DNA of 64,000 nt, from contig OZ024741.1 of the NCBI GenBank assembly GCA_964016885.1, forward strand, positions 199,268,001 to 199,332,000, read 5' to 3'. Made by a program: the position numbers and the translations under genes. Every line of letters begins with the position of its first letter. Within the stretch, counting starts at the first letter, position 1. Of the stretch, positions 19,010-59,877 are shown piece after piece. The notes beneath the pieces are model-generated. The model saw only the letters and a program-made list of their open reading frames with translations, was not told where the DNA came from and made no database searches. This stretch comes from Eledone cirrhosa (lineage: Eukaryota).

Positions 19010-19060
19010 TGTACATATATATATGTTTATATATATATGTATATATATGTATATACATAT

Positions 19061-19770
19061 TCAATACATTAACAGAGAAAGCCTTAAGCTATACTCTGAC
19101 TGGCTACCATCTCACTCAACAAACATTAGGATATACCTTAGTATGATCCCAATTTTATGTTTGGAGTGCTAACTATATGTATTTTGCGGAAAGCCAGTTG
19201 TAATATTTTATATGAGATATAATTAAAATTAAAATATATCTCCCTTTCCAAACAATTGTTTCATTATAAGTTTTCTACAAGTTGGGAGAATGTGTCCGGG
19301 TTATGTAGAAGCCTGCACATTTTTCTGTAAGAACATATGCAGGTGGGCACTTATAAATCATCAGTGGAGGCCCGTCAAACATTGATATAAGAAAAAATCT
19401 CTTACCGATGTCAGTTTTCGTGTCAGCAATTGTCCCTTCTCGCATCATAATGACCGCCAAATTTGAAATTCCAGCAGTCTCAGAATGAGGAATTTCACAG
19501 CGTCACGAAGCGGAAAAGGGAGGCAATCGCGAAACACAAGAAAGTAAACTAATTTACACGTGGGTCAATTAATTTTTTCAACAATTTTAACCCTGCGTGT
19601 TAAGAACTCAATTAGATTATTAAAAAATAAATGTATGCATGTATTAATTATACACGCATATAGGTATTTTCTTAGGCTAAAAACATAGATATGATACCAG
19701 AATAACAATCAATATTTCATAATAATAATAAATACGGAAAGTTACGCTTAAATGGTATCTGGAAATATTC
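19061..19770 (-). mobile_element. Non-coding ~700-bp hammerhead-bearing element (retrozyme-like), diverged copy
   Basis: Colinear similarity to 20296-21000 (ctcactcaacaaacattagga...taagaactcaatt); flanked by (TA)n. Confidence 0.7.
19247..19368 (-). ncRNA. Type I hammerhead ribozyme with extended, branched stem II
   Basis: TCCA-CTGATGA-T-TTATAAGT[CCTGCATAT/ATGTGCAGG and TTCTACA/TGTAGAA hairpins]ACTTATAA-T-GAAAC-AATT-GTT^TGGA. Confidence 0.8.
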
Positions 19771-20208: not shown

Positions 20209-20295
20209 GTGTATATATATATATATATGTATATATATATGTGTATATATATATGTATATACATATATATATAAATATATATGTGTATATAAATA

Positions 20296-21168
20296 CAATA
20301 TCGGAGAAAGCTTTTTAGCGATACTCCGGCCAAATTCCAACTCACTCAACAAACATTAGGAAATAAGTGATTATATTCCCAATTATGTGTTCGGGGTGCT
20401 AACTAAAAGTATTGCGTGGAAAATTGGCTGTATTATTTCATATGAGATATATCTAATATATATCTTCCCAGACGGACGTCTCGTTTCATTATAGGATTCC
20501 TACAATTTGGGTGAAATTATACCAATTTATGTAGGAGCTTGTATACCATCAATAGATATATAATCAAGTGGGCTCCTATAATTCATCAGTGGGTGCCCCA
20601 ATAATACTAATATTGATAGTCTAACCAACATCAGCATTTAGCGATAATCACTTTCTGTGCCTGAGGTATCTGTCAGGTAGCCAGTCCAGCAGTTCTGAAA
20701 GAAGTGCTCGAACTGATTCAAAAAATGAGGAAGTGAATTACCGCCAAAAAAAAACAATACATGCGCGTGAAAATGAACTCTGAAAGGAATTCAGGCCACG
20801 TGCTAAGAACTCAATTGGAAATTGAAAAAATATCTATGTGTTTACAACATTTGATGACACACACAGATATTTTCTCGGGCAAAATAACAGAATGAGATAT
20901 AAGGAACAATCAATATTCATATATAAAAAATAAACAAAGAAATGCTGACCTTATACCGGGAATTTTTTCAAATCTGCTGCGCCAAGAGTAAGTAAATAAA
21001 TAAAATATCGGAGAAAGCTTTTTAGCGATACTCCGGCCAAATTCCAACTCACTCAACAAACATTAGGAAATAAGTGATTATATTCCCAATTATGTGTTCG
21101 GGGTGCTAACTAAAAGTATTGCGTGGAAAATTGGCTGTATTATTTCAAATGAGACATATCTAACATAT
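20296..21168 (-). mobile_element. Retrozyme-like element: 707-bp monomer plus ~165-bp terminal direct repeat
   Basis: 20301 and 21008 both begin tcggagaaagctttttagcgatactccggcc (offset 707); no ORF; embedded in (TA)n. Confidence 0.8.
20467..20593 (-). ncRNA. Type I hammerhead ribozyme with extended, branched stem II; GUC cleavage site predicted between 20471 and 20470
   Basis: CCCA-CTGATGA-ATTATAGGA[...TCCTACA/TGTAGGA...]TCCTATAAT-GAAACG-AGACGTC-CGTC^TGGG. Confidence 0.85.
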
Positions 21169-21321
21169 CTGTATGTGTATATATATATGTATATACATAT
21201 ATATATATAAATATATGTATATATGTATATACATATATATATAAATATATGTATATATATATATACGTATATATATATATGTATATATATATATGTATGT
21301 GTGTGTGTATATATATATATA

Positions 21322-23480
21322 ATCATGATCACCATTTAATATCCATTTTCCATCTAGCATGGGTTAAATGAGCTATCCCGTTGTGAGATAAGCCAGGGCA
21401 GATGACCATGTGTAGCTCATGCAGAACTGATTTTGGCTTGGTTTCTACTATTGAAGCCCTTCCTAATATGCCAACCACATTTACAGTGTGTGCTAGGTGC
21501 TTTTTGTTGTGACACCTTCACAACTGGGCCAGGCACTTTCTAGTGTGGGCTGGGCACATTTTGTTGTGACACCTATATGACCACTTTACAGTGTGGACTG
21601 GGTTCTCCTTGTCATGGTACCAAAAATGAGCACTTTACAGTGTGGACTGGGGACTTGGGTGCTGGAGGTGCATGAGGATTGGGGGAGGTAGATCTAGGGG
21701 CATCGGTGAAGTGTTAGGACTAGGGAGGTGCATTGAAAGGGGTGATGAAGGGGAAGGTGGCACATACTAGATGTATGCCTCAACCCATCTTTTCCTGTTC
21801 ATATATATTACTATTGCACATCCATCAAAGCATGGAAGCTTCATTTCTTTCCAGTCTTCGCAGGGCCTCTGCACACAGCTATTTATATATATGCATCATA
21901 CAATCTGCCCTTCATTTTGAGGAAAGAATCTTTTGTAATTAGCAACGGTAGTAGCTAACTGAACTTCCTCCAACCCTTTCTCACTCTGACTACTGTGCTT
22001 TCGGAACACCTACCTCCACTATTAATTTAGTCACCTAAGTAACAGAAACTATCAACTACTTCTACAGTGCCCTCTGGGCATTCAAAGGAGCTTGTATCCT
22101 GTGGGCTCTTGCTACTTACTGCACCTGTGCATCAGCCACAACATTTCTTGTGTACCCATGGTTTGCATTTGGGGCATAGAATGGAATTTTTATCTTCACC
22201 TTTTCGGCACACCGAGCAAGGCCATTTTCCCTGAGGGAATGTAGGCCATTTTCCTTTCTACATAACTAGAACTTTGGTCTTTGACAAGTTAACTTTAAGA
22301 CCTTTTGATTCTAGGCCATGCTTCTGGGTTTGGAATATCTTCTCTAATTCTGCCATAGATTTAGCTATATGGGTTAGGTCATTTGAATACAGAAGTTCCC
22401 AGGGGAAGCCAGCCTTAAACTCCTCCAATATAGCTTGCAGAATGATAATAAACAGAAGAGGATTGAGAACTGAGCCTTGATGGACACCAACTTACATGCT
22501 AAATTATTTACTATAGTCATTGTTAATTCTAATCTTGCTGACATGGATTGTATAGCTTTCATAAGCCACTCACCTACTCCTATTTTTGTAAGAGCCCACC
22601 AGATAATGGAATGAGGGACTCTGTCAAAAGTTTTCTCCATGTCTACAAAAGTCAGTTGGGGGGGGGGGGGGGGGGGGGCGGCGGTGTACCTTTAGCTAGG
22701 TACTTTTCCTGCAGTTGCCTCACAAGGAAGAGAACATCTGTGGTACTTCTACCTGGCACAATTTTAATTTGCATCTCATCTACGTTAACTCGATCTTTAA
22801 TCAGCTGGGATCTTCATAACTTGGTCGACCTATTTTATGCCTTCATAGTTTTCTCAGTGTAGAGCATGTTTGCCCTTGTAGCTGTTAACAGTGATACTGC
22901 TATGTCAGTCATTGGATATGACACCATTTTATATTACTTGGTTTACAATACAGGTGATTATGGTGTGACCCACCATTCCAGATGCTTTTAGCATCACAGC
23001 ACTATCCCGAAGGTCTAGCAGCCTTGTCTGTCTTCATATCTATGATTGCCTTACTTACTACTGCTGACTTTTACAGCCAGTTCCTCTGTTGGGTCAACTT
23101 GTGGCAAACTATTTTCTTCCCATGCATTCTCCTCATTCAGCAATCTTTCATAGTAGCATTTTCATGTTACCTTCTTTTTGGTATCAATGAGGGCAAGTTC
23201 ACCATTATCATCTGAGACACACATGTTCCCACCAACATCACAATTTTCCCTGAAACAGACACACTACCTTGCAATCCTGAACACCTCATGCTTTTGATCC
23301 TCATGCTGCAAATCATGCTTAAACTTTTTATTTTCTGTTTCCTTTCTTGCAAAGTATACTTGTCACTTAGCTTCTCTCCTAGCATTCTGGTAGACTTCTC
23401 TACTACCCCCATTTTACCAATTCTTCCAAATCTGTCTTTTGGCCTTAATTGTCTCATTGACTTTACTATTCCACACTAAG
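21322..23480 (-). mobile_element. Older degraded RTE LINE
   Basis: Broken RT fragments (EKTFDRVPHSIIWWAL) and an RTE-type 3'UTR. Confidence 0.8.
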
Positions 23481-24454: not shown

Positions 24455-27400
24455 TGCACATATAACTTCAGAGTTGGTACCATAAATGTAGGCACCTTAA
24501 AGGGTCGCGCTAACGAGGTTGTAGAAATGCTTGAACGTAAGGAGGTCGATGTTTGTTGTATTCAAGAGACCAGGTGGAGGGGTGGGTCTGCTAGATTCAT
24601 TGAGGGTAAAAAACAATGTTATAAGCTTTTCTGGGTGGGAAACGACGATGGGCTGGGGGGAGTAGGAATCATGGTAGCAGAAAAGTGGGCAGATAAGATA
24701 ATAGACGTAAATAGAGTGAACGACAGAATAATTAAAATAAGACTTGTCCTCAATAGAACTACGGTGACAGTAATATCTGCGTACGCACCCCAATCCGGAC
24801 TGCCCGGCACTATAAAAGACAGATTCTATGAGACACTGATGCTCACTACCTCCCAAATAACCGACAGTGACTATATAATTATTGCAGGCGACCTAAATGG
24901 TCACGTTGGACAACATTGTGACGGTTACGACGAAATCCATGGAGGCTATGGGTTTGGTACTAGAAATGAGGAAGGCTCTAGAATCCTGGAATTCTGTGAC
25001 GCAAATAACCTAACTATCTGTAACACTAACTTCAAAAAACGTGACAATCACCTGATCACCTATAGATCCGGGGAACACACAAGCCAGGTAGATTATATCC
25101 TTACCAGAAGACGTGACAGAGTGTCTGTTGTAAACACTAAATCCCTCCCCCATGAAGAATGCACCTCCCAACATAGACTGATAATTAGCGACCTCATAGT
25201 CAGGACGAGACGTACTCGACAGCAGAAGAGGACTATCCTCAGGAGAAAAATATGGAAGCTAAAGGACCCCACAGCCAGAAATAAATTTCAAAGCATATTA
25301 CTTGATGCTTTCGACAGTAAGGAAGAGCATTTAGAGTCGGACAATATAGCGGGACAGTGGGAATTTCTGAAAGCAAACCTGCTGATGGCGACAGACGAAG
25401 TCTGTGGCTGGAGCAGGCCTGTTGGCAGGAGGAGAGTAACATGGTGGTGGAACAGTAAGGTGGAGGGGTCAATTAAGGCCAAAAAGCAGGCTTGGAAAGT
25501 ATGGCGGGATGGGGGAAGTAGAGAAGACTATCAAGTGGCCAGGAGGGAAGCTAGGAGACAAGTGTACTTCGCAAGAAGGGAAGCAGAGGAAAGAAAGTTC
25601 AAGCATGTTCTACAACGCGAGGACCAAAAACGTGAGGTGTTCAGGATTGCTAGGCAATGTGTCAAGGAAAACCGTGATATTGTCGGGGAGAAGTGTGTAC
25701 TTAATGATGACGGCGTACTTGCCATCACCGACGCTGATAAGAAGGTAGCTTGGAAGTGTCACTATGAAAGGCTACTAAATGAGGAGAATAAATGGGAGAA
25801 AGACAGTCTCCCCCACATCGACCCAATAGAGGGACCAGCAGTGTTAGTCGAGGGGGAGTATAATAAGTAAGGCAATCAAGGATATGAAGACGGGTAAGGC
25901 GGCTGGGCCTTCGGAAATAGTTGCTGAGATGCTGAAGGCATCTGGCACGGTGGGACACACCATGGTCACCCGGATAGTTAACCAAGTCGTACAGAATGGG
26001 GTTGTTCCGAAGGACTGGCATAGCAGCATCATCGTTAACTGTTATAAGGGTAAAGGAGATGCCCTAGATAGGAGTAACTATAGAGGCATTAAATTAATCG
26101 ACCAGGTCATGAAGGTCACGGAAAAAGTAATAGCGCAACTAATCAGAGAGAGAATTGACCTAGATGAAATGCAGTTCGGGTTTGTGTGAGGCAAAAGTAC
26201 CACAGACGCTCTTTTCATTGTATGTCAACTACAGGAGAAGTACCTAGCTAAAGGTAAACCCCTCTACTTAGCTTTTGTCGACTTGGAGAAAGCCTTCGAC
26301 AGAGTTCCCCGTTCCATTATCTGGTGTGCCCTTAGAAAACTAGGTGTCGACGAATGGCTTGTGAGAGCTATAGAAGCCATGTATAAAGAAACAGTCAGCA
26401 AGGTTAGAATTAACAACGAATATAGTGAAGAGTTTCGCGTAAAAGTTGGCGTCCATCAGGGCTCTGTTCTCAGCCCCCTACTATTTATTATTGCCCTTCA
26501 GGCTATAACAGAGGAGTTCAAGACCGGCTGCCCATGGGAACTCCTATACGCAGACAACCTGACACTCATAGCTGAAGCAATGGCCGAGCTAGAGAAGAAA
26601 TTCCAAACATCGAAGCACGGCCTAGAATCAAAAGGCCTTAAAATTAACCTGGCTAAGACTAAAGTTCTAGTTTGTAGGAAAGAAAATAAGGCGGCGGTCC
26701 CTTCCGGGAAATGGCCATGCTCAGTGTGTAGGAAAGACGTAGGTAGAAACTCCATTTTATGTCCCAAATGCAAAGTATGGGTGCATAAAAGATGTAGTGG
26801 GATCACAGGTAAGCTAACTAAGAACATAGATTTTACATGTGGGCGGTGCTCTGGTGCAATAAGTAGCAGCAAGTGCCCACAAAATACTAGCTCTTACAAC
26901 TGCGCAGAGGGCTCTATAGAAATAGTGGACAGCTTCCGTTACCTGGGTGACGAAATCAGCAGAGTGAAAGTACAGTAGCTAGAGTCAGAACTGGATGGAA
27001 AAAGTTCAGAGAGCTTATACCACTATTAGTCGCTAAAGGGTTCTCCCTAAAAATGAAAGGCAGGTTGTATGATGCCTGCATACGAACAGCAATGTTGCAT
27101 GGCAGTGAGACCTGGGCATTGTGTGCAGAGGATATACGCAGACTAGAGAGGAACGAAGCTTGCATGCTCCGCTGGATGTGTAATAGTAATATACGTGAAC
27201 GGCAAAGCATAAACGAACTAAGGAAAAAATTAGAAATAAGAGAGATCAGATATTGTTTACTCGAGAGAAGGCTACGTTGGTATGGACACATGATGCGCAT
27301 GAAAGTCGATAGCTGTATAACAAAGTGCAGGGCAATAAAGATAGACGGTAGCCACGGAATAGGCAGACCTAGAAAAACCTGGGACGAGCTGATAAACTCC

Positions 27401-27872
27401 GACCTCACACACTTACACCTCTCCAAGACAATATCACTGGACTGAGACCTTTGGCGGTATTCAGTAATAGAGAAGACCCGCCTTACCTAAATACATAGTA
27501 AAACCTACTACAGCCAGTAGGCATCTCTAACAAAATACACCCCCGTCCCACCACCCCCACCCCATCCACACCACCCCTTCTATGTAAAGTTATGTTGGTG
27601 CCACACCATCCAGGCCGAAACAAATGAGATCGTGTAGGTGTCACGACAAAAAACACACAGTCCACGCTGTAATGTGGCCGTGTAGGCAACACGGTAAAAA
27701 CCTCCCAGACCCACACTGTAAATGTGGTTGGTGTTAGGAAGGGCATCCAACTGTAGAAAACCTGCCAGACAGTCCTATGCGAGCAAGACAATCACTCTTG
27801 CCTCAAGTGGGACTACCCCCGTCCAAACCCATGCAAGCGTGGAACACGGACGTTAAACGTTGATGATGATGA
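24455..27872 (+). mobile_element. Near full-length RTE LINE family B (APE plus RT), few disablements
   Basis: 447-aa ORF with CIQET, AYAPQ, GDLNGHVG and VDYIL; RT motifs downstream broken by frameshifts and stops; 3'UTR and (GAT)n tail. Confidence 0.95.
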
Positions 27873-28791: not shown

Positions 28792-28823
<32 letters not shown>

Positions 28824-28885
28824 ATATATATATATATCCATACTTATATATCCATACTTATATATCCATACATATATATATATAT

Positions 28886-29007
28886 ATAGGAACGAGTAGG
28901 ACCCCGACGGCTGAGCTCAAGCCGTTTCGACGGCTAATTCTGGATGCGTCCAGAATTAGCTGTCGAAACGGCTTGAGCTCAGCCGTCGGGGTCCTACTCG
29001 TTCCTAT
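28886..29007. repeat. 122-bp GC-rich palindrome containing the 3' half of a hammerhead ribozyme
   Basis: 61-bp arms; the only mismatches are two G.T pairs near the centre; right arm reads GAAA-CGGCT-tgagctc-AGCCG-TC^GGGG. Confidence 0.9.
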
Positions 29008-29083
29008 TACCCACTCTACTACCCTAAGTATTGAGTACTTTGGTGCGTTATGGTCCATTTGGTTCCTTACCACATTTCCTTCG

Positions 29084-29190
<107 letters not shown>

Positions 29191-32564: not shown

Positions 32565-35231
<2,667 letters not shown>

Positions 35232-48328: not shown

Positions 48329-50575
48329 TCATCAACCTCGTTGATTAGCGTCCATCATTTGTGGGTAGGGCGGATTGACCCTTAGAGAAAAAAACAGGTC
48401 AGAAGACCATGTTTAGCTCACCTGGGGCAGATTTTGGCTTGGTTTCTAAAAAAAGGGTGCCCTTCCTACCTCCAACCATATTGTGTGTGCTGGGTGCTTT
48501 TTGTCCTGTCATCTACACAACCACATTACAGTATGGATTGGGCACTTTTTGTCATGGCACCTATATGACCACTTTACAGTGTGGATTAGGTACCTTTATC
48601 ATGTCACTGACACGACAACTTTACAGTGGGGCCAGGGCACTTTTGTCTTAGGACAAGGAAGGGGGTGGAAGCTTGGGGGAATTGTGGACAGGGTAGTAGG
48701 GGAGGCATGGTTACTACTAAGGATGGTGAATGAGAGGGGAGAAGGTCAAGGAAGCTGTTGCCTACTAGGTATAACCCTCAGCCTGAAAATAATAGAGGGC
48801 GGGTTTTGTAACATTGCATAGCGCCAGAGTTTGCGGTCCTGCGTCATTGTCTTTGAGAGGTATAATTGTGCAAGGTCAGCTTTTATTACCTCATCCCAAG
48901 TTTTCCTACGCCTGCTCACACCACGGCTACCATCAACTTTGAGCACTCTGCACCTTATTATACAGCTGCCATCCTTCATATGCATCACATGTCCATACTA
49001 ATGTAATCTCCTCTCCTGCATGCAACAACTGATCCCTCTTATCCTTAATTTCTCATGCAGTAGATTTATACATGCTGTGAAGCATGGCGGTTTCATTTCT
49101 TTCCAATCTTCACAGTTCCTCAGCACACAGTGCCCAGGTCTTGCTGCTGTGCAACATTGTTGTTTGTATACATGCATCATACAGTCTGCCTTTCATTTTG
49201 AGGGAAGAACCTCTTGTAGTTAGTAACAATAGTAGCTCCCTGAAATTTCTCCAACCCGATCTCACTCTGGTTACTGTGCTTTCAGAACACCCTCTGCCAC
49301 TACTGATTTGGTCACCCAGGTAACGGAAACTATGTACCACTTCAACTGAGCCATCTGAGCATTTGAAGGTGGTTGTATCCCGAGCGTTCTTGCTACTTTC
49401 TGCCCTGTGCACCAGCCACGAGTAAAACCTACATTCTTTGTTAGCCTGTCTGAGATCCTACTATATCTCTTGTGTACCCATTGCTGGGATTTGGTACATA
49501 GAATGGAATTTCTACCTACTCCTTTTCTGCACCCTGAGCAGGGCCATTTCTCAGAGGAGATCTGGGCCCTGTTATCCCTTCTACTTACTAGGACTTTAGT
49601 CTTTGTCAGGTTGACTTTATGATTCTAGGCCTTGCTTCCAGGTTTGGAATTTCATCTCTAGTTCAGCTATAGATTTGGATATAAGGGTTAGGCTATCAGC
49701 ATACAGAAGTTCCCATGGGTAGTCGGTCTTAAATGCCTCTGTTATTGCCTGCAGAACGATAATAAACAGAAGAGGGCTAAGAACAGAGCCCTGATGAACA
49801 CCAATCTGCATGCTAAATTCTTCACTATAGGCATTGTTAATTCTAACCTTACTGGCCGTTCTTCTATACATTACTTGAATTGCCCTCACAAGCCATTCGT
49901 CAACTCCTAGTTTCCTAAGAGCCCACCAGATAATGGAACGGGGAACTCTGTCAAAAGCTTTCTCAAGGTCGACAAAAGCCAGGTAGAGGGGCTTACTCTT
50001 AGCTAGATACTTACAAGGAAGAGGGCATCTGTGGTACTCTTACCTGGGACAAATCTAAACTGCATCTCATCTATGTTAACATATTCTCTAATCAGCTGAG
50101 CTATGACTCTTTCAGTGACCGTCTTAATCTGGTCAACCAACTTAATGCCTCTATAGTTTTCTCTATCTAGAGCATCTACTTTGCCCTTGCAGCAGTGTAT
50201 GATGATGCTGCTACACCAGTCATTGGGTATGACACCATTTTGAATGACTTGGTTTACAATGTGGAAGACTATGATGTGGCCCACCATTCCTTAAGTTTTC
50301 AGCATGTCAGCAACTATCCCCGTGGAGCCGACTGCCCTGCCTGACTCCATATCCTTGATTGCCTTACTTACTATACTACCGCTAACTTGTACAGCCAGTC
50401 CCTCTGTTGGGTCAACATGTGACAGACTGTCTTTATCCCATGCATTCTCCTCATTCAGTAATCTTTCACAGTGGCACTTCCATGATACCTTCTTTTCAGC
50501 GTCAGTGAGGGCAAGTTCACCAAAATCTCTTTGGACACATTTCTCTCCACCAACATCACAATTTTCCCTGACACA
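48329..50575 (-). mobile_element. Degraded RTE LINE
   Basis: RT fragments GVHQGSVLSP and WELLYAD; RTE 3'UTR. Confidence 0.85.
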
Positions 50576-51349: not shown

Positions 51350-54053
51350 CATTAGAGGATGATCGTATGTATAATCTACAGATTTCACCTACTAAATTTC
51401 ATGTACAAGTTTTATTTATTTGACCACTTGACATTTTCTGTTTATTCTGATTTGTTTTTCCATATTTTCTCCCTGTACAATCTCCCATTTCATCTTCATT
51501 TCTTGTTCTTGTCTTCTGGCTCTGCATGTGGTAATTTCCATCTGTTATCATTTTCCTATCTGTTCAGGTCTGTTCCATTATCTGTTGTTTCTAATCATGT
51601 ATTAGTCCATAACTGATCTAATCACTTTTGTATCTCTACTAGTTAGTTTTTATTCTGGTCAAGTCACTATCATGTTATCCTTTCAGCTTCTTATTGATTT
51701 GTGCAAGCCATCTCCATCTATTTAACATCATTCTGTCACTGTATATTGTGTTATGACAAGTTTCACTTAGTACTGGACAGTTTGATCCAATTAACTCTTT
51801 CAATACCAATCTGCTTGAAACCCACCTTGGTTCTATGTTAAAACTAATCATATTAAAGTGTTCATATATAAATTTTATCATAATTTTATTACAACTTTGT
51901 CATCTTCTTAACATCAACTATATAAAAAAGTTATTTTACCAAAAGCTTTCGAATTCTAGATTTAATTTCAAGTATTTCTTGAAAGTGTTAAGGTACTATC
52001 TGTTCTCTTATATAATTTACTTTTTCATTTATATTTTCTATCACAACAACCTTAAAAATTAGTTTTAGTCAGGTTATATTTGGTCAGGTTATATTTGTTC
52101 CAGAGGATGATTTTTCAATTGTTTCAAGGGCACAACAACCTCTCTTGTGTTGGCGACACAATAGAATGCACCTAGTGTACTCTGTGTAGTGTGCAACCAT
52201 GAACAATTTGCCAAATAAAGGTTCAAGAAGACTCATCAGAAGTATTAAAGATATGACAACTTCCCTAGTGTTGATGTGACAATAAAAGGCACCAGTGCAC
52301 CATATTGAATGAGGAAATGTATGTGAGTGCTGGCCCTGGCCCGTCTTTGAGGTCAGTAGCTCTAATTAAATATTGACTTTGACTGCGAAGACCCATCCAA
52401 CTCTTGCGTGCAGGGAAAATGAACATCAAAGGATGATGATGATAAACTGTCCTTGACCTTTAACACACCTCATATTTTGCATATGAAGGCTTGTGTCACA
52501 TTGTGTCATGTTGAATATCCTGTTGAAAACTACATTAAGAGTACACATGCCTGCGGAAGGCTCTGTTACTTGCATGTTAATTTTACAAGCAGCTTGTCAC
52601 ATTGACCAGACAACTGGAACAATTGTCAGAAATCACTGAAGTGCATCACATACCTTGGACACATTATATTCTCTCTATATTCTTATCTCTATGCTCTCTA
52701 ATGTGCCCATAAAAGCCCTAATTAGTAAAACATACTCATTTCAAAGATCCCTCTGTACTGATAAGAAATACATAGTAAATAGCATAAGATGTACTGAGGG
52801 ACAGAAAACATGAGTGGAATAGCAACATCACAACTAGTAATTAAGGACAAAATGAAGACATACAGACATACACAAAACCAAACTTACAAAACAAATCAGA
52901 CACACACAGATAGAACAAACAACCAACCAACTAGTGACAAGTAAATAAATACATAAATAAATAAATAAAAACACACACACACCTAGATGTAATGCATGCA
53001 CCAACCAGGCTCACAACACACGAAAACAAGATGGTGTAGGACAGAACAAAGGAGAGACACAAAATAAAAAAAACCTAGTCACTGAGGAGGTCACAGAATA
53101 TGTGATGGAAGAGCTTTGTCAATATATAAACAACCATCCAGTTATCAAACCAAACAACCAACCAGAAATTTATAATAAATTGAAGGGAAAACCAATAGGC
53201 GCATGTGTTTTTATTGACCTTGAAAGGATGAAAGGCAAAATTGACTTTAGCAGGATTTGAACTAGAGAACAGAGAGCTGAAATAAATACTGTAAAGCACT
53301 CTATCCGATGATGTCCTAATGACTGCCAATTCACCTTCTATAAACTAAAGTAAAGACTTCAATCTTTAATCTGATGCAGTCATATCTTGCTAATACAGTT
53401 TCATTTGGTACAAGATGTTAAGAGTTAAATAAAAAGTGTGATTTGATCTTGTGTGAAATAGCTATGGCTATTTTGAAATGGAATATAAGATTGATAGGCA
53501 AAATCTATTTAAACTAATGTGACATACAAAGGAGAAGCAGTATATGAGTTGAGAATGTCGGAGATATGAACGAAAATAAATTTTGGTAAGTAAATGTGAG
53601 TAGAAAAACTTTTTGAAGTTTACATAGTAATATGAATGTATATATATATATATATATATCATCATCATTTCATCATCATTTCATTTTACGTCCGCTTTTT
53701 CCCTGCTTGCAAGGGTGGGACAGGAACTGATTCTGGCTTGATTTCTACAGCAGGATGCCCTTCCTAACACCAACCTCATTTACAGTGAGTGCTGGGTGCT
53801 TTTTTGCCGTGGCACCTCCACGACCACTTTGCAGTGGAATGATAGGGACCCCAGTCCCTATCATCTCATTTCTACAGCTGAGTAAACTGGAGCAATGTGA
53901 AATAAAGTGTCTTGCTCAAGGAAACAACACATCACCCGGTCTGAGAATTGAACTCACAACCTTTCGATTGCAAGGCCAATGCTCTAACCACTAAGCAATG
54001 TATATATATGTGATGGTGATAATAGCCATCCTCATCATCATACATGTGCATGC

Positions 54054-59027: not shown

Positions 59028-59333
59028 CTATGTAAAGTTATGTTGGTGCCACACCATCCAGGCCGAAACAAATGAGATCGTGTAGGTGTCACGACAAAAA
59101 AACACACAGTCCACGCTGTAATGTGGCCGTGTAGGCAACACGGTAAAAACCTCCCAGACCCACACTGTAAATGTGGTTGGTGTTAGGAAGGGCATCCAAT
59201 TGTAGAAAACCTGCCAGACAGTCCTATGCGAGCAAGACAATCACTCTTGCCTCAAGTGGGAAAACCCCCGTCCAAACCCATGCAAGCGTGGAACACGGAC
59301 GTTAAACGATGATGATGATGATGATGATGATGA
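59028..59333 (+). mobile_element. 3'UTR fragment of RTE family B
   Basis: Near-identical to 27579-27872. Confidence 0.9.
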
Positions 59334-59483
59334 TATAATAAGTTGACGGAACTAGCATGGGTATCACTGCTAGGACCGCTTGCATCTCAGTGTACTCAAT
59401 AGGTAATGTTAAATAAACTCCCAGAGTATACACATAGTTATTCACTTCAATACAACTCACGTAAACCGGTACCTTCAATTGTT

Positions 59484-59594
59484 CCCGAACTCGAGTTTCA
59501 GCCACACTTAATGCAGCATTAGAGGGCACTGCACCATCTGTCTGCATATATTATGCAACAATGCATAATCGCTGCATGTGGCTTCATCAGCGGG
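59484..59594 (-). ncRNA. Type I hammerhead ribozyme with extended, branched stem II, inside a ~500-bp non-coding insert (about 59334-59842)
   Basis: CCCG-CTGATGA-AGCCACA[ATTATGCA/TGCATAAT and GTGCAG/CTGCAT hairpins]TGTGGCT-GAAA-CTCGAG-TT^CGGG. Confidence 0.85.
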
Positions 59595-59839
59595 CTTCAC
59601 CTAATCAATAACCAATCAATCGACAGAATTCAACTCCAGTCTGTGTCAGCTATGACTGTTTGTGACGACCAACACAGTAAAATGTTGGTAACTGGAATCT
59701 CTACACAACACAATGCTGTCCCTGATTGGCTACTGATTTATAAATTTACGTGATGGCAGGAGACGAAAATTCAAATAGTTCCACTCCTGCCATAAGCACT
59801 CAGCCAACCTATCTCAAACACAAATTAACAAGTTAGTGA

Positions 59840-59877
<38 letters not shown>

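Follow-up and report, generated by a model that had tools for sequence, protein, structure and literature searches.

The window analyzed here, 64,000 nucleotides of the Eledone cirrhosa contig OZ024741.1, contains near its right end a 5'-truncated repeat copy that carries a hammerhead motif with an enlarged stem II, predicted to be branched (Table 1). The copy belongs to an abundant non-coding repeat with a tandem unit of about 850 nt, named family A in this study. A first-pass annotation of the sequence had delimited the element as 59334-59842, close to the true copy ends at 59844 and about 59335, and had placed a hammerhead at 59484-59594 (-), where its stems, core, palindrome, and two predicted hairpins were indeed found. 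Cleavage is predicted between 59488 and 59487 of the minus strand, at a GUU site. When folded, the whole hammerhead motif of this copy weakly beats its shuffles (z of -1.1, 24/200), and the insert alone reaches a z of -2.3 (5/300 shuffles as good). Its second hairpin is mis-registered by mutations and differs from the consensus fold, and its leader-junction pairing (GGUG/GCAGCG) is broken. The window copy is a dead, decayed repeat without sign of host function. An abundant short repeat headed by (ATC)n, at ~59040-59334, abuts its 3' end and occurs at many other sites.

Table 1. Layout of the family A copy, in window positions; strands are read as RNA from the minus strand where motifs are given.
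Feature	Position	Strand	Evidence
5'-truncated family A copy (unit positions 345-850 of the ~850-nt unit plus short TAT tail)	59335..59844	-	93.3% to family consensus over 59341-59844; ends common to other copies
Stretch of (TA)n bordering the 5' end, probable target microsatellite	59844..59874	.	Sequence; 43/49 copies with full 3' end have TA repeats <=25 nt away
5' leader, GGUG in window copy, GGCG in consensus; predicted pseudoknot strand	59598..59601	-	
Stem I 5' strand CCCG	59591..59594	-	Paired in 221/240 cells (60 copies)
CUGAUGA (59590-59584) plus extra unpaired A (N10)	59583..59590	-	
5' strand of proximal stem II (GCCACA and U)	59576..59582	-	Two double compensatory changes between subfamilies
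Unpaired junction strand, GCAGCG in window copy, GCGCCG in consensus; predicted leader partner	59570..59575	-	
Inner hairpin P2a, predicted, 8 bp plus 4-nt loop	59550..59569	-	466/480 cells paired; one A-U/G-U wobble, zero double changes
Inner hairpin P2b, predicted, ~15 bp in consensus; three broken pairs in window copy	59511..59547	-	
3' strand of proximal stem II (UGUGGC) and additional base N11 (window U; consensus C or A)	59500..59506	-	
GAAA (59499-59496), palindromic stem III ACUCGAGU (59496-59489), and H17	59488..59499	-	Hairpin +2.9 vs intermolecular duplex -10.7 kcal/mol
Stem I 3' strand CGGG	59484..59487	-	
~150-nt 3' region up to fixed 3' terminus; inferred RT start region	59335..59483	-	49/58 copies stop here; analogy with PMC11167929 (available part)

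The complete genome assembly (3.0 Gb in 1,796 contigs) was searched for relatives of this copy. A DNA search with the window copy gave 2,328 candidates at first look; 40 of them were scored, and the best 39 besides the window copy were 86-91% identical to it. A search with the core pattern gave 908 matches, where the reversed control gave four, an excess over chance; 96 of the 100 matches listed were assigned to family A by eye. Among 58 distinct copies, all chosen for containing the hammerhead, 49 stopped at one common 3' end, and 43 of these 49 had TA repeats within 25 nt of it. The 5' ends were scattered over positions 1-595 of the 850-nt unit. In four of the 58 copies, the end of a preceding unit was found upstream, forming a partial tandem. 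In locus L124, two family A hammerheads lie 839 nt apart, the first unit being partial; most copies elsewhere are shorter than one unit. A comparison of L124 with three runs from a single sample, whose kind is not recorded, provided short contigs only, which say nothing about cleavage. Just past the tandem junction at the start of the unit, GAGTAAGT (for example at loci L003, L008, and L013) resembles a 5' splice site; Penelope-like elements (PLEs) can hold introns near their pLTR.

No similarity was found between the family A unit and two PLE proteins (best E of 0.72), and no coding remnant was found in the unit, whose longest open frame spans 139 codons. Family A hence combines a partial tandem (pLTR), a fixed 3' end, variable 5' truncation, and a lack of reverse transcriptase (RT) or endonuclease coding, in line with the layout described for PLEs, whose copies share one 3' end, vary at their 5' ends, form partial tandems, and sit in microsatellites (PMC8557442, available part). 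It is very probably a non-autonomous PLE-type element with a hammerhead. Non-CpG divergence among its copies was 0.051 in the insert, 0.044 in the flanks, and 0.010 in the core, the last being biased low because 30 of the 60 copies came from the core-pattern search. As the insert diverges like the flanks, the copies decay neutrally, and any selection was on master elements.

On a tree of 60 copies, six subfamilies were distinguished by eye. All six consensuses kept the core and stem I, with the CUGAnGA and GAAA boxes, A15.1-U16.1, H17, and the opening at stem I of a type I hammerhead. Additionally, a helix I of 4-5 bp, G10.1-C11.1, the extra N10, and a palindromic helix III correspond to a minimal PLE hammerhead, here with a helix II of 6-7 bp. 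The first-pass annotation had given stem II as AGCCACA/TGTGGCT; the GCCACA/UGUGGC stem stood, whereas the closing A-U pair is a minority state, the consensuses having additional unpaired bases, A10 on one side and C or A at position 11 on the other. Similarly, the GUU site described earlier holds for the window copy and is one of three subfamily triplets (GUU, GUC, or GUA). Two compensated pair changes separate subfamilies in stem II, and 2/7 of its pairs changed on both sides in a test of 14 copies. Stem III is an 8-nt palindrome that is far more stable as an intermolecular duplex (-10.7 kcal/mol) than as a hairpin (+2.9 kcal/mol), which fits a dimer model (PMC4209133, available part). The core pattern was kept in 21 of 30 family A copies found by BLAST. 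Stem I was absent from the minimum-energy folds of all six consensuses, and a search of the 64-kb window with the Rfam hammerhead families at the gathering threshold gave no matches. Self-cleavage at H17 is predicted. Dimeric PLE hammerheads are also said to be the subject of work by Lunse et al. in 2017.

Between the core boxes, family A holds 83-84 nt, with a loop II of ~70 nt. The same three-way junction was predicted for all six consensuses (z of -2.7 to -5.5, 300 shuffles), in the order of a 7-bp stem, a 6-nt free strand, an 8-bp hairpin (P2a), 1-2 nt, and a long hairpin (P2b). Among 14 hand-picked copies, 0/8 pairs of P2a and 2/16 pairs of P2b changed on both sides, each of the latter in one copy; for the whole fold the count was 5/41, equaled in 16/500 shuffles. 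At the subfamily level, double compensatory change was observed in stem II only, and the inner hairpins varied mostly by wobble pairs. On these folds, a three-way structure of the stem II insert can be predicted with good confidence.

Long-arm hammerheads were found to be widespread in the genome. Family B, located at 19-21 kb in the window, has a 707-nt tandem unit and a TA-anchored layout like that of A, and a pattern for inserts of 86-116 nt gave 4,138 matches compared with 15 in controls, mostly B among the matches listed. The statement in the earlier annotation that the two families lack primary similarity was upheld: no homology outside the core was detected between A and B (613/1,000 shuffles equal for the 3' flank and 565/1,000 for the 5' flank; best profile E of 0.06). 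In the family B fold, 11/37 pairs changed on both sides, six in the first hairpin and two in the second, and 3/500 shuffles were equal, for 14 hand-picked copies and shuffles that ignore relatedness. A third, older family, I, was predicted to have the branched topology of A and B (z of -6.4), and the junction spacing is identical in all three. Similarity of A and of B to I was nominal at best (38 and 29 of 1,000 shuffles, among eight tests). Convergence and remote common descent of the branched arm in A and B are both compatible with these comparisons.

Several other repeats occur in the window. A young B copy at 20268-21170 (-), with a branched hammerhead at 20467-20593, is 97.5% identical to locus L032 and consists of a full 707-nt unit after a 178-nt partial unit. 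A diverged B subfamily with compensated hairpins lies at ~19040-19740 (-), with its core at 19364 and ~71% identity to the 20-kb copy. An inverted pair of type I hammerheads at 13406-13471 (-) and 13583-13648 (+) ends at (TA)n, has a 7-bp stem I, a 33-nt stem II region, and a GUA-like UA site, and represents a typical inverted PLE fragment. A LINE-like coding repeat occurs in both orientations at ~11750-13210, 21870-22610, 25850-27560, 32880-34590, and 48800-50380.

A pattern for inserts of 52-80 nt gave 530 matches and 12 in controls, and included families with a single distal hairpin past an internal loop. Across families, the insert contains either one or two hairpins, and its length varies between about 35 and 107 nt. 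In family K (4,642 matches, zero in controls), the core is of the U3-A8 type and stem II is interrupted, with 54-56 nt. Locus L319 of this family has hammerheads at 3303 and 6421, in both pLTRs, flanking a 786-codon frame, with an inverted copy upstream; an enlarged stem II therefore belongs to at least one autonomous PLE in this genome. Inverted 3' fragments of family K, which is of Hydra type, lie at 28805-29090 in the window.

The first-pass annotation had proposed the two-hairpin stem II as a conserved structural module. The insert is kept across A subfamilies and its predicted topology recurs in A, B, and I, but in many families there is a single distal hairpin, or the stem is irregular, so that a pair of hairpins does not constitute the conserved unit. 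The inner hairpins themselves gave a divided result: both carry compensatory changes in B, but changes in A were of the wobble type at the subfamily level. Neutral evolution of the insert, together with a deletion of the insert without effect, had been named as grounds for rejecting the module; the inserts of genomic copies diverge as their flanks do.

More constant than the two hairpins is an unpaired, leader-complementary strand past the proximal stem II. In families A, B, I, and E, this free strand is complementary to the bases immediately 5' of stem I (leader/junction GGCG/CGCC in A, GGGC/GCCC in B, GGACU/AGUCC in I, and GAGAAGA/UCUUCUC in E). Over 19 sequence clusters, own-family pairing reached -4.0 kcal/mol compared with -2.2 +/- 0.4 kcal/mol after permutation (1/20,000 permutations), in windows picked after the pattern had been seen and with family I represented by one decayed copy. 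The test set comprised 133 distinct matches, chance ones included, with L091-L126 and L207-L226 left out. With 24 clusters the result was 0/20,000, and control windows gave 227/20,000 (raised) and 2,101/20,000. About half of the groups showed no pairing. A single covarying event was observed in family E, in two matches from one inverted insertion. The helix in A has 4 bp, or 3 bp in two subfamilies, and no covariation of it was seen among the six subfamilies. Two families found later behaved differently from each other. In family J, the leader pairs over ~10-15 bp with the stem II 5' arm (-5.8 to -12.8 kcal/mol at 25 loci, without shuffle control). In family K, the predicted leader covariation failed (-1.4 to -3.0 kcal/mol in 30/30 loci), and the leader extends stem I instead of pairing with the junction. 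At the family J loci (L227-L256, match at 1501), the leader has two potential partners, the 5' arm of stem II and the 3' tail, and might thus act as a switch.

Taken as a structural model, the leader-junction helix is fairly probably real, and it is likely the known stem I-II pseudoknot moved from a loop to the junction. Helices that join stems I and II occur in ~40% of hammerhead representatives, and cleavage is slower when they are disrupted (Perreault et al., 2011; PMC3088659, available part), which makes a pseudoknot the simplest reading. In these pseudoknotted hammerheads a Watson-Crick helix keeps stems I and II parallel, as proposed for A; the partner there is a loop or tail, whereas in A a single strand within an internal loop or three-way junction would take this part. 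A contact between loops I and II had been among the roles suggested earlier for the insert. Of those roles, a tertiary contact that joins stem I to stem II is the best supported, but it maps to the unpaired junction strand and not to the hairpins.

The traits of family A point to a particular group of PLEs. It is inserted in (TA)n, and its hammerhead has N10, N11, and a palindromic stem III. In the Hydra rows of File S2 of PMC8557442 (available part), the extra N10/N11 and the palindromic stem III are common and loop 2 spans 3-10 nt, and Hydra elements target (TA)n. Since Naiads also use (TA)n, the target alone is not diagnostic. By this analogy, the mobiliser of family A is likely a Hydra-clade PLE. 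The Hydra motifs RW(K/R), DKT, and CxCx5C were found by eye in the proteins of L121 and L319, the latter with an RWR variant. L121 (779-3559, +), together with L122 and L123, represents an autonomous PLE that is very young, with frames open over 927 codons and a hammerhead that is short and of the U3-A8 type; its endonuclease as query gave 59,435 first-look candidates. A Pfam search identified no family in L121 and one sub-threshold RT match in L040. Relatives of the L319 protein were mostly unnamed, many with precomputed PF26215/PF28514. Autonomous PLEs in this genome show an end layout like that of A; those of the L058 type have short-loop hammerheads and end ~150-200 nt past them, and a 3' fragment of this type, ~77% identical and with a C-terminal endonuclease with a CxxC linker, lies at ~52670-53216 (+) in the window. 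No blastn match at E<1e-6 was found between the window copy and the three autonomous elements (K/L319, L121, and L058), a sample of a few of the genome's PLE families for a 3' end in common with A, so that we can only infer the mobiliser. An ORF beside family E in L148 was rejected as a partner, the neighbor being joined via a rearranged piece. The abundant, Hydra-like ORF family of this type (L257-L286, 30 loci) had no canonical hammerhead in its downstream consensus, while the Hydra clade is reported always to carry one. In the available part of an octopus repeat annotation (PMC13282606), no hammerhead or ribozyme is mentioned.

Together, it is moderately probable that family A is a decayed non-coding repeat, likely copied into (TA)n by a Hydra PLE, whose stem II three-way junction pairs with the leader to dock stems I and II. 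A tandem master would be transcribed, and two hammerheads one unit apart would pair via the palindromic stem III and cleave at a slow rate, probably aided by protein. In place of the usual loop contact there would be the leader-junction helix, and the distal hairpins would be a tolerated extension that stays folded and leaves the junction strand free. Reverse transcription would start ~150 nt beyond the cut site, with an uncleaved multimer or a re-joined circle as template; this would explain why copies extend across the site and can be longer than one unit. At the cut site, 5' ends did not accumulate: five truncated copies were found among 13 matches, compared with 13 in the first 24 distinct loci from the 143 rows of a control covering the following ~10 nt, a test that is weak either way because the control window is inflated by TA microhomology. 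Given the read-through copies, some longer than one unit, and this lack of a pile-up, the template was likely an uncleaved multimer or re-joined circle. This agrees with an anole PLE, in which the RT initiates at an internal position downstream of the hammerhead, cleavage depends on protein, and insertion in vitro persists in catalytic mutants (PMC11167929, available part).

A bolder version of this docking model, which we regard as unlikely, is that a PLE lineage and its non-coding parasites turned stem II into a multi-domain arm, whose free strand would switch between a trap helix and the docking pseudoknot under the element's own protein. If true, it would constitute a natural protein-gated hammerhead with about ten thousand copies in one animal genome, overlooked by current models. 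A gated ribozyme is a further reading: the leader helix would be an early-forming trap that blocks stem II and the core until a PLE protein on the branched arm releases it, which would restrict cutting to the transposition complex. Subfamilies A1a and A1b have minimum-energy folds in which the core lies within the leader helix and stem II does not form, the family J leader pairs extensively with the stem II 5' arm, and the anole hammerhead cuts only with protein (PMC11167929, available part). However, the folding software cannot score pseudoknots, the leader-paired strand in A, B, E, and I is centered on bases that are single in the ribozyme fold, so that both structures can form, and the distal hairpins have no common sequence between families. 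A gate of this kind is improbable.

A similarly low probability is given to the insert as a passenger. Stem II would tolerate nearly anything past 6-8 bp, duplications would be kept if foldable, the leader match would be incidental, and cleavage may not matter for mobility. The range of insert lengths and hairpin numbers is consistent with this, as are the short-loop hammerheads of other autonomous PLEs in this genome, the decay of copies at the flank rate, the lack of a 5'-end excess at the cut site, and the catalytic mutants without effect on in vitro insertion (PMC11167929, available part). Against it, the core is invariant in six A consensuses while stem II changes in compensated pairs, the hairpins of B covary, junction spacing is identical in three families, and the leader-junction permutation result would be left as coincidence. 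RT recruitment, with the branched arm as a handle by which a non-autonomous RNA captures its partner protein, fits the high copy number of all three two-hairpin families without an adjacent PLE ORF at the loci examined, but is very improbable, as the arm lies >150 nt from the fixed 3' end, autonomous K also has an enlarged stem II, and in the anole element, whose ORF starts at stem II, RNA 5' of ORF position +20 was dispensable (PMC11167929, available part); evidence for neither this role nor ligand regulation, both suggested in the first-pass annotation, was found in the present analysis.

Family A resembles several described systems in part. Hydra-clade PLE hammerheads are likewise of type I and lie close to the 3' end, with a short stem I, extra base(s) flanking stem II on one side or both, insertion into (TA)n, and a palindromic stem III, of the form ACUC-N-GAGU in several rows; their loop 2 spans 3-10 nt in every row, whereas that of A is ~70 nt and predicted to be branched, and family A has no ORF (Craig et al., 2021; PMC8557442, available part). 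Minimal PLE hammerheads share with A a helix I of 4-5 bp, a long helix II, N10, G10.1-C11.1, a palindromic helix III with proposed dimer action, and mostly single truncated copies (Cervera and de la Pena, 2014; PMC4209133, available part). Their descriptor limits loop 2 to 3-10 nt and therefore excludes long-arm motifs; in the available part of that paper, loop 1 is called poorly defined and no leader pseudoknot is reported. Animal non-LTR retrozymes also consist of tandem units that do not code for protein and contain a single type I hammerhead, with a proposed PLE dependence (PMC7229834, available part), and the unit length of A falls within the retrozyme range of 51-972 bp (bioRxiv 10.64898/2026.07.22.740005, available part). 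Classical retrozymes, in contrast, form circles of 170-400 nt and multimer arrays with canonical loop-loop hammerheads, while A consists mostly of dispersed sub-unit fragments in TA repeats and is known from genomic DNA. Non-autonomous Chlamys elements such as MRC1 are non-coding, form pLTRs, and insert head-to-tail as A does, but they resemble autonomous partners at the 3' end, and no such partner was found for A (PMC8557442, available part). Over-long but shorter loops are present in PLE-X1 of spike mosses (loop 2 of ~30-35 nt) and in 'HHR_half_core' Naiads (35-50 nt, eight cases including two cephalopods); both are listed as deviating, with branching or leader pairing not described in the available part of PMC8557442. 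PLE hammerheads, dimer action, retrozymes, and pseudoknots are hence already known, and a branched stem II appears to be the element not found described. No description of it in PLE hammerheads was met in the literature searched; Lunse et al. (2017), Repbase/Dfam, and further supplements may already hold these families.

Hammerheads of PLEs show poor in vitro cutting, no recognized tertiary contacts, and dispensability for insertion in the one reconstituted system. The partly overlapping searches for long-arm motifs in this genome (908 + 4,138 + 530 + 4,642 matches) indicate that Rfam and loop-limited descriptors miss thousands of motifs, and censuses of PLEs and retrozymes may therefore be too low. 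Hammerheads of the Eledone cirrhosa genome form a natural series, with short loops at one end, interrupted stems in between, and predicted three-way junctions at the other end, and with a testable Watson-Crick contact that varies in sequence by family.
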